30,339 nt of DNA from a bacterium UBP13_UBA5359. GTDB lineage: Bacteria; UBP13; UBA5359. Below the pieces are notes generated by a model. It searched no databases. It worked only from the letters and a program-made list of their open reading frames with translations, and was not told where the DNA came from. This document shows positions 13,662 to 28,112 of the stretch, piece by piece. The stretch is from contig DHPR01000029.1 of NCBI GenBank assembly GCA_002410925.1, positions 62,001 through 92,339 on the forward strand, in the 5' to 3' direction. How positions within the stretch are numbered: position 1 is the stretch's first letter; each line of letters begins with the position of its first letter. The translations under genes and the position numbers were made by a program.

Positions 13662-13697
13662 AAAAGGCGCCCTTTTGGGGCGTTCACACAGGGATTT
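13662..13697. repeat. Left attachment junction
   Basis: Host arm AAAAGGCG (13662-13669), TT core (13675-13676), 7 nt, element arm TCACACAGGGATTT (13684-13697). Confidence 0.8.
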
Positions 13698-13730
13698 ATA
13701 AAAAACTTGTGTGACAGCTTCAAGCGAGGT

Positions 13731-13786
13731 AAAAAAGAGACCAGTCTGCATGAGCTTAATTGCTTGGCATGACTGGTCTCTTTTTT
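13731..13786. terminator. Bidirectional intrinsic terminator ending the defence operon
   Basis: Perfect 16-bp inverted repeat AAAAAAGAGACCAGTC / GACTGGTCTCTTTTTT overlapping the stop codon at 13785-13787. Confidence 0.85.
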
Positions 13787-15266
13787 ATATTTTAACATTT
13801 GATGCTGAAGCCTTGTTGTCCGTTGCATCAATTAGAATGATATCTCGGCAATCATGTAATTTCAACTCATTCAATATGTTTGTTATTTTGCCGTGTTCTT
13901 CATCTGTGAAAAACAATATGACTTTTATTGCTCGGTCGGTGTTATTCGCCTTTTTGTATATTTCGACCTGTTTAGCAAGGTTGTTTTTTAACTTGCTATT
14001 TGATGCAAGCTTGAATTCAACAAGAGCAGTATTTTTTGATCCCTTTGATACTTTAAAATCGACAGGACCACGTCCATTATTGACTTCTCTATTAACGTCA
14101 AATTCACTTGCGAACCATACAAGCCGGTACATAATTTGCAAGTCGCTTTCACGGCGAAGTGGCTTCCCATCGATGTAAAATATACGATAGCAATCCATGT
14201 CCTCTATTGCTGATTTCAAGAACATTACACGCTTATACGCTTCCTCATAAGAATCTGCTTTTTCTTTGTAAAAATCTGTGCGACTATGCAGCAATTCGGC
14301 AAGTTCTCGAAGCTGCGTATTAAATAGCTGCTTTACCTCGCGCACTGCTTCCTTGCTTATGGATGTTGCATCTTCTTCGTTTAGCTCTTTGTGCTTTATA
14401 TAGTAATCAATTATTTCAGGGTATTCAGATATCAAGTCAGCAGCCGCTCTGTCTTTTTCAGTTTTTGACATTTCCTTCTTTTTCTTTGGTAGCACTTCAC
14501 GAAAATAATTATTCAGTGCGAATCGTATTGTCGCATCTTCAACTGAAGGAGCTATGTTCTGAAGATTTCCAATCATGTCGCTACGATTGATGAACGTATC
14601 ATCCCGTGTTAGTAAGTCTCTCGGAGTCAACAGAACATAATCGTTGTCAAAGCAGGGAAGGTAACATTCTTTAGACATCCATGTCATAGTTTCATAGTTA
14701 AATTCAACTTTTGGAACAATAAAAATTCGGCATTGGGAAGCATCCATATTTTCTGACGCAAATGCCGCTGTGTAATCCAGTAGGTATTTCTTGGCAAAAT
14801 TGGTCGTAAAATCGCTTATCTTATCGCGGCCGACTTTATGGCTGATAAGGCATAACTTTTCCAGATGCGAACTCTTCGTAATCGTCTCTTTTCCGAAATC
14901 TTTAAAAATAGTTTGTAAGCCACGATGAAGATTTTTTGCGAAATCAACACCTAATCCACGACCTGAATTACCATCCATACTGAATCCAATCCAAGTTTGC
15001 TTTACTTCTGGGAAAAGGTACCATGCGCCCATCATCCCCGCAGGTGGGGTTTGGTGCTTCTCCGCCTGCGATTGTAAGAACAGCAAATATGTGATTATCT
15101 CGTTATGGATAATCTGATATTCTTCTTTCTCGCTGTTAAAAAGCAAAAAAGGGTCAATAAACAGTGGCAGATCATTAATCAAAGAGATATTAATTGCACC
15201 ATATGACTCAACAACATCTTCATCTATTCCGAAAAAGTCAGAAAAGTATAGTCTTATACCACTCAT
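13785..15266 (-). CDS. Uncharacterised protein with C-terminal PD-(D/E)XK nuclease motif; candidate defence gene
   Basis: RESDLQ...REVNNGRGPVDFKVSKG...VEFKLAS pattern; N-terminal DLPLFIDPFLLF; last gene of the mod-res operon; AT-rich. Confidence 0.7.
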   Translation of the reverse strand: MSGIRLYFSDFFGIDEDVVESYGAINISLINDLPLFIDPFLLFNSEKEEYQIIHNEIITYLLFLQSQAEKHQTPPAGMMGAWYLFPEVKQTWIGFSMDGNSGRGLGVDFAKNLHRGLQTIFKDFGKETITKSSHLEKLCLISHKVGRDKISDFTTNFAKKYLLDYTAAFASENMDASQCRIFIVPKVEFNYETMTWMSKECYLPCFDNDYVLLTPRDLLTRDDTFINRSDMIGNLQNIAPSVEDATIRFALNNYFREVLPKKKKEMSKTEKDRAAADLISEYPEIIDYYIKHKELNEEDATSISKEAVREVKQLFNTQLRELAELLHSRTDFYKEKADSYEEAYKRVMFLKSAIEDMDCYRIFYIDGKPLRRESDLQIMYRLVWFASEFDVNREVNNGRGPVDFKVSKGSKNTALVEFKLASNSKLKNNLAKQVEIYKKANNTDRAIKVILFFTDEEHGKITNILNELKLHDCRDIILIDATDNKASASNVKI

Positions 15267-15286
15267 ATCATTCTCCTAAATCGAAT

Positions 15287-26319: not shown

Positions 26320-26371
26320 AATATACATGCTGCCTACGCTTGAAGACTGTCGGAAACGGAGGATGATTAAA

Positions 26372-28039
26372 ATGTATAGACAGTTTACAAGTGGCAAGCA
26401 CACACAAACCACAACTATAGACGCAACAAAAGTCACGGCTCTCTACTGCAGATTATCCCGTGACGACGAGCTTGCGGGAGACAGCAATTCGATTGTGAAC
26501 CAGAAGGCTATTTTGAAAAAGTATGCAGACGACAACGGTTTTCTCAACACCGCGTATTTTGTAGACGATGGCTACAGCGGGACGAACTTCGAAAGACCCG
26601 ATTTCCAGCGTATGGTAGCCGAAATGGCCGAAGGTCGAATCGGCACGATTATTGTAAAAGACATGTCGAGGTTGGGCAGAAATTATCTGAAAGTCGGCTA
26701 TTACACCGAAGTCGCATTCCCCAATGCCGATGTTCGCTTCATTGCCGTCAGCAATGGTGTGGACAGCGCAAACCAGCAGGACAGCGATTTTACTCCTTTT
26801 TTGAACATAATCAACGAATTTTACGCGCGTGACACTAGCAAGAAAATACGCGCTGTGTTTAAAGCTAAGGGAGAGTCCGGTAAGCCGCTCTGCACCAATC
26901 CGCCCTACGGATACATAAAAGACCCAGAGGACAAAATGCGCTGGATTGTCGACACAGAAGCAGCCGAAGTGGTCAAGGCAATTTTCAAAATGTGTATGGA
27001 GGGATTTGGACCCACACAGATAGCAAAAAGCCTTGAAAAAAATCAAATTGAAACACCGACGGTACACCTAAACAGTATGGGCATTAAAACTCCCGCCAAG
27101 CAGACGGAAACGCCTCATGCATGGCAAGCACGGACGGTAGCCGACATTCTCGCAAAGGTCGAATATCTGGGACACACGGTGAATTTTAAGACCCGCAAAA
27201 AATCCTACAAGAGCAAGGAGAAGATTTGGAACAATCCTGAAGACTGGATGGTATTTGAAAATATGCACGAAGCCATCGTCGACGAACAGGTTTGGGAAAC
27301 CGTCCAGAAAATACGAGAGGGTAAGCGCAGACCGTCCCGTATGGGTGAGATGGGTGTATTCTCCGGCATGATGTTCTGTGCAGATTGTGGGGCGAAGCTG
27401 TATCAGGTCAGAGCCAACGGCTGGACGCATGACAAGGAATATTTCGTTTGCGCTACTTATCGAAAAAAGAAGGGTCTGTGCAGTTCGCACCAGATACGCA
27501 ATGTGGTCATTGAGGAACTGGTACTTGACGATTTGCAGCAGGTCGTAACCTTTGTGAAAGAACACGAGCGGGATTTCATCGCAGCCGCCACAAAAAGCTC
27601 CGAAAAGCGGGTTGCTGAAGACCTGCGTACGGCGCAGAAAGAATATGAGCAGGGACAGATGCGAATTGCCACACTGGATAAAATCATGAAGAAACTTTAT
27701 GAAGACCGTGTAATGGAGAAAATTTCGGAGGAATGGTTCTACAAGATGTCAGCGGACTATGAAGTCGAGCAGAAAAGTCTTATGGAGAGAGCCACGACGT
27801 TGAAACAGACGCTTGATGCCACAAAGGAACAGAATCTGAACATCGACCGTTTCCTCAAAATCGTACGCAAATACACGGAAATTACAGAATTAAGTGGTGA
27901 AATTATTCGGGACTTCATCGAAAAGATAATCGTGTTCAAGGCTGAAAAGGTTGACGGTGTCCGAACCCAGCGGATTCAAATCATTTATAATTGCATCGGA
28001 GCAATAGATTTTCCGAAAACGGACGAAAAAACGGCATAG
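26372..28039 (+). CDS. Large serine recombinase (TnpX-like: resolvase, recombinase, Zn-ribbon and DUF4368 domains)
   Basis: [10 protein letters not shown] catalytic Ser motif, [27 protein letters not shown]...C...C Zn ribbon, coiled coil, [10 protein letters not shown]; start at ATG 26372 behind GGAGG. Confidence 0.96.
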
Positions 28040-28067
28040 CCGCAGTTTACGACTATGCCGGATTTTT
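28026..28067. terminator. Terminator-like hairpin at the recombinase 3' end
   Basis: CGGCATAGCCG / CGACTATGCCG stem (28032-28060), A6 before it (T6 on the minus strand) and T5 shortly after. Confidence 0.7.
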
Positions 28068-28077
28068 CAGGGATATA

Positions 28078-28112
28078 AAATCCCTATGTGAGGACAGCTT
28101 CCGACGCCTTTT
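28078..28112. repeat. Right attachment junction
   Basis: Element arm AAATCCCTATGTGA (28078-28091), 7 nt, TT core (28099-28100), host arm CGCCTTTT (28105-28112). Confidence 0.8.

Follow-up and report, generated by a model that had tools for sequence, protein, structure and literature searches.

The window analysed here, a stretch of 30,339 nucleotides (nt) of contig DHPR01000029.1 from the bacterium UBP13_UBA5359, carries an integrated element of 14.4 kb that ends at position 28,100. We consider it probable that this element is a cos-type phage satellite, descended from and parasitising HNH-dependent cos phages with HK97-like heads (Ca. Heliusvirales-like phages), and that it resembles SaPIbov5 in its strategy but uses a transposon-type recombinase. 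The term satellite rests on comparative anatomy, from which we infer induction, excision, replication, cos cleavage, co-assembly, size redirection and transfer. A first reading, made from the sequence alone, had described a transposon-type integration module joined to a module like that of cos-type phage-inducible chromosomal islands (PICIs), and our comparisons of synteny, size and site support this combination. The element is an intact member of a large and apparently undescribed family of mobile elements; our literature search found no description of such elements.

The lone capsid gene and its family

The element was annotated with Pfam, PHROGs and PADLOC, and 14 of its open reading frames (ORFs) were scanned. 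They fall into two arms, with cargo genes on the minus strand and core genes on the plus strand. Two features of the core arm lie next to each other:

25122-26036, plus strand: HK97-fold major capsid protein homologue, 304 aa (Pfam PF05065, E 2.2e-67, profile positions 1-279 of 280)
24998-25090, plus strand: cos-like site, conserved and non-coding, ~93 nt, 32 nt before the capsid start (nhmmer, three rounds)

The 14 ORFs scanned gave no match to any terminase, portal, protease, tail, lysis or relaxase family, and a tblastn comparison with the large terminase subunit (TerL), portal and protease of Heliusvirales likewise found nothing inside the element. Pfam, PADLOC and PHROGs agree in this respect with the gene content given by the sequence-only reading, namely a primase-helicase, one HK97-type capsid, TnpW and a TnpX-like recombinase. 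By profile comparison the capsid protein matches the RcGTA and HK97 gp5 structures, and among solved structures the RcGTA capsid is its closest relative (E 1e-46).

Two scans seeded with an alignment of this capsid yielded 80 loci from 185,579 species genomes and 80 from IMG/VR, and 161 loci with a usable capsid match were retained, the window and one phage record included. They were classed by tblastn with the window proteins and the head genes of Heliusvirales phage PV036447.1. Loci in which a gene for TerL, portal or protease precedes the capsid gene were called phage-type, and these phages are Ca. Heliusvirales-like; loci with none of the three beside the capsid, but with a primase, the 80-aa gene described below, TnpW or a serine recombinase, were called element-type. 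The outcome was 81 element-type, 72 phage-type and 8 unclear loci. In a FastTree phylogeny of 159 capsids a single change parts the element rows from the phage rows.

The two groups differ at the capsid N-terminus. Phage-context capsids have 84-96 additional N-terminal residues (median 88, n=72), which correspond to the delta or scaffold domain, whereas the median is 9 among element capsids and the window capsid has no such residues. Residues 7-304 of the window capsid align to residues 95-399 of the Heliusvirales capsid, so that its start is equivalent to residue ~89, and no delta-domain homologue was found among the small ORFs upstream of it. The capsid gene has a dN/dS of 0.08-0.13 against relatives at 66-88% identity, in line with the values of the primase and recombinase genes; it is a maintained, specialised gene.

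Could the element be the remnant of a decaying prophage whose head, tail and lysis genes were deleted? That a single phage lineage contains homologues of the primase, the cos-like site and the capsid would suit such an origin, but 81 loci share the same reduced layout and their capsids lie on one side of a single branch. The core genes are intact and under purifying selection, the ends and the empty site are defined, the loss of the delta domain is family-wide, and the ORFs inside the attachment (att) ends include no head, tail or lysis remnants. None of the 81 element loci has TerL, portal or protease beside the capsid, as the class definition demands, and the four elements with both ends mapped measure 14.4 kb (window), 14.8 kb (a relative in genome G041), 12.1 kb and 10.2 kb, a range too narrow to hide a phage head-and-tail set. 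We therefore agree with the sequence-only reading that the element is not a decayed prophage, and regard that origin as very improbable.

In locus L104 (3708-5354) an element-type capsid (47%), with the 80-aa gene upstream, is followed by homologues of head-tail adaptors (64% and 53% to those of the phage); this locus may be an intermediate between phage and minimal element. Three viral contigs (L162, L165 and L167) show the order HNH-site-TerS-TerL-portal-protease-capsid followed directly by serine recombinases, with a capsid 35% identical to that of the window; L162 fills an entire contig of 10.7 kb. The three contigs could represent the ends of prophages, or else elements of this lineage that carry head genes only and resemble capsid-forming PICIs (cf-PICIs).

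The cos-like site

Conservation of the 135 nt that precede the capsid gene extends to distant relatives and to two phage loci. Of the 81 element loci, 78 have the ~93-nt site, as one copy in 59 and as two or more in 19. Among the phage loci, 35 have an upstream flank of at least 6.6 kb, and 10 of these contain the site as well; there its orientation is constant and it lies 6.6-9.5 kb upstream of the capsid gene. In the eight phage loci with a close gene for the small terminase subunit (TerS), it occupies the interval that separates the HNH (PF01844) gene from the Terminase_4 (PF05119) gene. The site lies between these two genes in Erysipelothrix phage phi1605 as well, and just upstream of the Terminase_4 gene in Streptococcus phage Javan630, in which HNH is not annotated. 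It is likewise in the HNH-terS gap of two prophages whose genomes also contain element copies, and three element loci retain the order site-TerS-capsid.

The order HNH-cos-terS is said to be the layout of HNH-dependent cos phages, reportedly in work by Kala and by Quiles-Puchalt from 2014. For HK97, passages of one report (PMC11331095) describe that the HNH protein stimulates cos cleavage and that TerS binds right beside the cut. The HNH-terS gap is the usual position of cos, and by its placement the site of the element is a predicted cos that terminase would cleave. The cos-like site named in the sequence-only reading has thus found its counterpart, at 24998-25090, in a site common to the HNH-terS gap of related phages.

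With respect to the capsid gene the site lies upstream in plus orientation in 51 cases and downstream in minus orientation in 40. Because it occurs in either orientation, a DNA site fits better than a promoter. No consensus RNA fold was found in it (RNAalifold -1.09 kcal/mol, 4 pairs, no compensatory change), and Rfam gave no match in the site; within 13000-28800 only the repeats of clustered regularly interspaced short palindromic repeats (CRISPR) matched. In a tree of the site the phage rows are dispersed among the element rows with 7 changes, a tree that is unresolved and compatible with one origin. Inspection by eye of 117 viral contigs placed a few sites within ~130 nt of a contig end, at no fixed distance.

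Ends, recombinase, replication and cargo

The ends and the integration module comprise the following features:

13673-13698, plus strand: attL, the left junction, with crossover TT at 13673-13674 or 13675-13676, then the left recombinase-binding arm ending AGGGATTTA (basis: empty site in genome G001)
26101-26313, plus strand: TnpW (Pfam PF14202, E 7e-15)
26291-28039, plus strand: large serine recombinase, TnpX-like (Pfam Resolvase, Recombinase, Zn_ribbon_recom, DUF4368)
28070-28100, plus strand: right arm and attR, with crossover TT at 28099-28100; right end conserved in 25 relatives

The insertion is real, since genome G001 of the same genus holds the empty site (locus L084): it matches the window over 13071-13661 and again over 28170-28306, with 83 bp in between. 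Alignment of the junctions with this empty site predicts a circle of 14,424 or 14,426 bp (window 13673/13675-28100), which agrees within 2 bp with the bounds of 13675-28100 and the 14,424 bp proposed from sequence alone. A TT at both junctions (13673-13676 on the left, 28099-28100 on the right) is the crossover. An assembly chimera is ruled out because contigs of the source run and of a sister sample (X1 and X2) span both junctions; they show the integrated form.

Together the host flanks form a GC-rich stem, one half on each side of the element, with a T-run behind it; the stem comes immediately after a DUF2267 gene. This places the element in the loop of a rho-independent terminator. Of 27 right junctions, 24 have a T-run within the next 32 nt, compared with 19% of random windows. 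Left ends were sought by motif, which gave only those of L007 and L016, and that of G041 was obtained from its whole genome; the left arm motif of the window recurs at the left end of the G041 relative, and a related arm is present in L007 and L016. In all four elements with both ends known (window, G041, L007 and L016) the rebuilt target is a terminator hairpin with a TT or AA core.

The TnpX-like protein is the only recombinase of the element and is encoded at the end far from the repressor gene. Its true start is probably the ATG at about residue 25-28, as relatives align from residue 28 on, and its dN/dS is 0.08-0.12. Among the 54 element loci with at least 3 kb downstream, 23 encode TnpW and a TnpX-like recombinase, 3 a TnpX-like recombinase alone and 16 other, often tandem, serine recombinases; in 12 none was detected. 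The synteny of primase, capsid, TnpW and DUF4368 recombinase that had been suggested as a check thus recurs, and a primase is found in 43 of the 57 element-type loci with at least 4.5 kb upstream, but the recombinase module is not universal. Insertion targets differ between relatives. The targeting of terminator loops with TT or AA cores fits the report of Durrant et al. (PMC10083194), according to which most DUF4368 recombinases are multi-targeting and a TT core occurs in one example.

In view of this module, is the element a Tn4451-like TnpX/TnpW transposon that carries phage genes as cargo and spreads by excising and integrating, aided by conjugative elements or transformation? Such a transposon would account for the reach across phyla, with hosts in several of them, and for insertions in many different terminators. 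On the other hand, the 14 ORFs scanned hold no relaxase or Mob family, and what the family has as its core is the site, the small genes and the capsid, with a recombinase module that varies. The crossover of Tn4451 is GA, compared with TT in the element. We judge a transposon of this kind to be an unlikely explanation.

Three metagenome contigs (L178, L179 and L180) are ~2.5-kb, internally deleted derivatives of the L016 type that keep the left end, the final ~30 recombinase codons and the right end. They may be non-autonomous copies, comparable to miniature inverted-repeat transposable elements, that are mobile in trans.

The remainder of the core arm holds a putative replication module and small genes:

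21423-21987, no strand assigned: control region and putative origin, with two 35-nt direct repeats (21582-21616 and 21742-21776, 77% identity)
21988-24318, plus strand: primase-helicase, 776 aa (Pfam NrS-1 pol HBD, D5_N, Pox_D5; PHROG 1829 DNA primase, E 7e-166)
24501-24743, plus strand: conserved small core gene, 80 aa (50 blastp rows among small ORFs of element-type loci, the window's own included)
24759-24986, plus strand: 75-aa paralogue of the 80-aa gene (clustering and alignment; no Pfam family)

Parts of the control region are conserved in five relatives (L003, L004, L028, L101 and L105). The ori-like repeat of the sequence-only reading corresponds to the two 35-nt copies upstream of the primase gene, for which a role as origin is putative. 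The primase has a dN/dS of 0.07-0.10 against relatives, and that of the 80-aa gene is 0.14-0.22. AlphaFold2 (AF2) predicts four strands and a helix for the 80-aa protein (pLDDT 86.8); Foldseek returned no match in the PDB at E<=0.001, Pfam, PHROGs and PADLOC gave no family, and the ESM Atlas gave only unnamed clusters. An ORF at 24638-25060 (140 aa) was rejected as spurious and in the wrong frame, the real genes being 24501-24743 and 24759-24986. In 58 of the 81 element loci one or two zinc-ribbon proteins of ~100 aa with paired CxxC motifs are encoded directly upstream of the capsid gene (for example L009, 9631-9942); they belong to no Pfam family and are missing in the window and its closest relatives.

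The minus-strand arm carries the regulator and the cargo:

21168-21422, minus strand: helix-turn-helix (HTH) protein of Cro/C1 type, 84 aa, putative master repressor (Pfam HTH_26, E 1e-15; PHROG 3 transcriptional repressor)
20296-21168, minus strand: Bro-N protein, defence candidate PDC-S13, anti-repressor-like (Pfam Bro-N, E 5e-12; PADLOC PDC-S13, E 2.5e-119, full length)
18267-20318, minus strand: type III Mod, 683 aa (Pfam N6_N4_Mtase, T3RM_EcoP15I_C; PADLOC MTase_III, E 1e-156)
15287-18292, minus strand: type III Res, 1001 aa (Pfam ResIII, RE_endonuc; PADLOC REase_III, E 6e-257, full length)
13785-15266, minus strand: candidate defence protein, PDC-M36A-like, 493 aa (PADLOC PDC-M36A, E 1e-19; PHROG 30194, full length, E 1.5e-37)

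The HTH gene is divergent from the primase operon, and homologues are equally placed in many relatives. An 81% identical copy of the Bro-N protein adjoins the HTH gene in L022. Res and Mod form a complete type III restriction-modification (R-M) pair, and the 493-aa protein has a weak, sub-cut-off match to the PD-(D/E)XK fold (Pfam PDDEXK_9, 19.3 bits). Only the ends and the core are common to the relative in G041 and the window; the cargo of the relative is a type I R-M system into which a Drt4 reverse transcriptase is embedded, and no head, tail or lysis remnants were found in this cargo. L007 carries a methyltransferase and a 954-aa protein of no assigned function, and L009 a type III Res/Mod pair. 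A near-constant size in spite of swapped cargo is what a limit on capsid volume would lead one to expect, although four elements are few. In a wastewater metagenome of another study (run X4), the summed contig depth over window 20905-28282 was several-fold higher in the core arm than in the cargo arm, with many variant letters, which suggests many related cores carrying other cargo; contig depth cannot rank regions.

Satellite reading, hosts and known systems

How would such a satellite live? In the proposed cycle the element, inserted in a terminator loop by its multi-targeting serine recombinase, would be repressed by the HTH regulator. Growth of a helper phage would bring about derepression and excision by the recombinase, perhaps with TnpW as directionality factor, and the element's own primase-helicase would replicate it from the repeat region. 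The TerS, TerL and HNH proteins of the helper would cut and package concatemers at the element's copy of cos, and the scaffold-less capsid protein would co-assemble with the capsid protein and scaffold of the helper into capsids for ~10-15 kb, as Ccm does for SaPIbov5. This co-assembly would also interfere with the helper, and the R-M and defence cargo would repay the host for carriage.

Several observations weigh against this satellite. Fifteen element loci have two inverted copies of the site around a cassette of small genes and capsid (for example L039, 4852-4943 on the plus and 6168-6258 on the minus strand), an arrangement that is not predicted by the cos reading, nor accounted for by a promoter. 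The site could be a late-operon control region instead of cos. In two genomes the sites of co-resident element and prophage are just 60-63% alike, so that the element site does not match the cos of the same-genome prophage. We know of no studied precedent for a capsid protein wholly without a delta domain. No circular, attP, empty-site or encapsidated form was seen by any route tried. The genome of the host itself contains no TerL_ATPase, no Phage_portal and no Heliusvirales TerL, portal or head gene, and the 25 CRISPR spacers beside the element match no locus and no phage collection entry. Finally, arrival by phage needs an unusual host jump, since the host is a diderm and 43 of 45 named carriers are Bacillota.

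The search for excised forms covered several sources. In Logan contigs of four runs, compared with 13000-28800, only the integrated form was present and no 28100-13675 joint; contigs drop rare variants, and this absence at the level of contigs is no evidence either way. The attP-junction check proposed in the sequence-only reading has in this way found no such junction, in material that cannot show rare forms. Loci L001-L169 contain no attP-like junction or terminal repeat, bar a chance palindrome in the phage locus L139. The junction pattern of the window type had no match in metagenome or viral contigs, and that of the L016 type had none in viral contigs and three in metagenome contigs. These three were rejected as excised forms; they are left junctions of integrated, internally deleted copies, which the pattern caught because the host terminator stem resembles the right arm of the element.

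Part of this evidence would also suit an integrative defence island that is never packaged, in which the scaffold-less capsid protein is a decoy that poisons Heliusvirales-like head assembly. The site would then be a late-operon control or a terminase trap, acting only during infection, and the island would be spread by its recombinase and by unrelated gene transfer. Defence cargo here and in relatives, the missing packaged or circular forms, the want of a helper in the host genome and the inverted site pairs that flank the capsid cassette are in line with such an island, as is the position of the site at the beginning of the packaging operon in the phages. However, a primase-helicase under purifying selection and common among the element loci would be superfluous for a static island, some members keep terS beside the site, and the size stays at 10-15 kb despite cargo swaps. 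Moreover, known satellites both interfere and ride, so that the decoy is partly a subset of the satellite reading. As a separate explanation we give it little chance.

The host genome (G000; 2.25 Mb, 98% complete) is one of three of its phylum in our set, and the other two lack this capsid. It encodes LpxC and has 37 matches to DUF1559 (PF07596), from which we conclude that the host is a diderm; the pattern is presumably that of the PVC (Planctomycetes-Verrucomicrobia-Chlamydiae) group. A single 'protease' match on C13 was dismissed as a helper gene; it probably represents the ClpP of the host. Of the 45 element loci whose genomes are named, 43 are from Bacillota, one is from Synergistota and one is on a short Bacteroidota-binned contig, and a 75% identical capsid is encoded on a Dehalococcoides chromosome. 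In the present host the element may be stranded, unless an unseen phage serves it. In one cultured strain, an element (L022) and a complete Heliusvirales-like prophage (L177) lie ~25 kb apart on one contig. Further cultured carriers are the genomes of L014, L033, L037 and L074.

Between the element and the contig end lie two further features. A 59-aa ORF (28118-28297, minus strand; no Pfam family) is a host gene, because its DNA is 84% conserved beside the empty site in G001. A CRISPR array (28313-30339, the contig end) starts ~210 nt past the element and has 26 full 30-nt repeats, a partial repeat at ~28313 and one 261-nt gap (29398-29658); its repeat is CRISPR-DR2-like at 33.1 bits, under the gathering score.

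A broader hypothesis, which we put forward tentatively and hold to be rather doubtful as a whole, is that of a pan-phylum group of cos satellites of Heliusvirales-like phages. These would combine the helper cos with a scaffold-stripped capsid that assembles only on the helper scaffold and resets the head size, and their multi-targeting recombinase, whose terminator-loop targets every genome offers, would have taken them into Clostridia, Synergistota, Dehalococcoides and this diderm. Strictly anaerobic Clostridia dominate guts and digesters, and Heliusvirales-like phages are a very widespread gut phage lineage. According to sections of a satellite survey (PMC10085698), known phage satellites are mostly from Proteobacteria and Firmicutes, in the latter mainly from Bacilli families, and these sections describe no satellite for strictly anaerobic Clostridia or for the Heliusvirales-like phages infecting them. 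Excerpts of the Heliusvirales paper (PMC11283538) likewise make no mention of satellites. Should the family behave in the way its anatomy leads one to suppose, the elements would be a fifth well-defined satellite family and a second case, independently arisen, of the 'cos plus capsid homologue' strategy known from SaPIbov5. They would also offer a natural capsid protein free of the scaffold domain, in which the setting of shell size in HK97-type heads could be studied, and would carry defence systems, among them R-M and reverse-transcriptase (DRT) systems, from one anaerobe to another across large distances of descent. As several members reside in cultured strains beside candidate helpers, these ideas are directly testable.

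Comparison with the Heliusvirales-like phages (PV036447.1, phi1605 and Javan630) reveals capsids that are 35-42% identical, the ~93-nt site and a D5-type primase in common. The phages, however, are complete at 48-90 kb, with TerS, TerL, portal, protease, a delta-bearing capsid and tails. Tn4451 and Tn4453 share with the element TnpW, a large serine recombinase with a DUF4368 tail, many targets and an expected excision to a circle. They differ in that the element has, by Pfam, no TnpZ-type Mob/relaxase (oriT was not searched), TnpV or TnpY, and adds a replication and capsid module.

Among satellites, the P4-like elements have a primase-helicase of the D5/P4-alpha type and a size of 10-15 kb, and cos packaging and size redirection would be further common traits if our interpretation of the element holds. 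Of the P4-like core (int, alpha, psu, sid, delta, alpA and epsilon), the element has only a D5_N/Pox_D5 primase-helicase. Furthermore, P4 redirects head size through an external scaffold and uses a tyrosine integrase, in contrast to the capsid homologue and serine recombinase of the element.

The criteria set out in parts of PMC10085698 define PICIs by at least four of the five components integrase, regulator, primase-replicase, capsid morphogenesis and terS, and cf-PICIs by at least nine of 11 core components, including terL, portal, head-tail adaptor/connector, protease and terS. Like PICIs, the element is a small island with a primase-replicase and accessory defence genes, and it has candidate counterparts of the integrase, the regulator and the capsid-morphogenesis gene; it lacks terS and its recombinase is of another superfamily. 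With cf-PICIs, whose median size is 14 kb, it shares an HK97-type capsid gene of its own, but this gene is alone and falls short of the cf-PICI core.

The closest parallel is provided by the cos-type Staphylococcus aureus pathogenicity islands (SaPIs) SaPIbov5 and SaPIbov4. Passages on SaPIbov5 (PMC5052747, PMC8569155) describe an island of ~14 kb that carries the cos site of its helper and no terS and depends on HNH-type cos phages; its capsid homologue Ccm occupies the pentamers of the shell and thereby causes the heads to be small and isometric. The cos SaPIs and the element are alike in size, in the absence of terS and in a lone capsid homologue and, on our reading of the element, in a helper-type cos site, in a replicon and repressor of their own and in their association with HNH-dependent cos phages with HK97-type heads. 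Whereas the cos SaPIs use a tyrosine integrase and a fixed att site, the element relies on TnpW and on a DUF4368 serine recombinase directed at terminator loops. Ccm keeps its delta domain (residues 1-87) and the element capsid has none. The element genes have no sequence relationship to SaPI genes, and in the searches run the capsid was unrelated to Ccm. The cos SaPIs occur in S. aureus, and the element family in anaerobic Clostridia and, here, in a diderm of a small phylum. The element is thus set apart from the cos SaPIs by its recombinase superfamily, by the loss of the delta domain and by its lineage.

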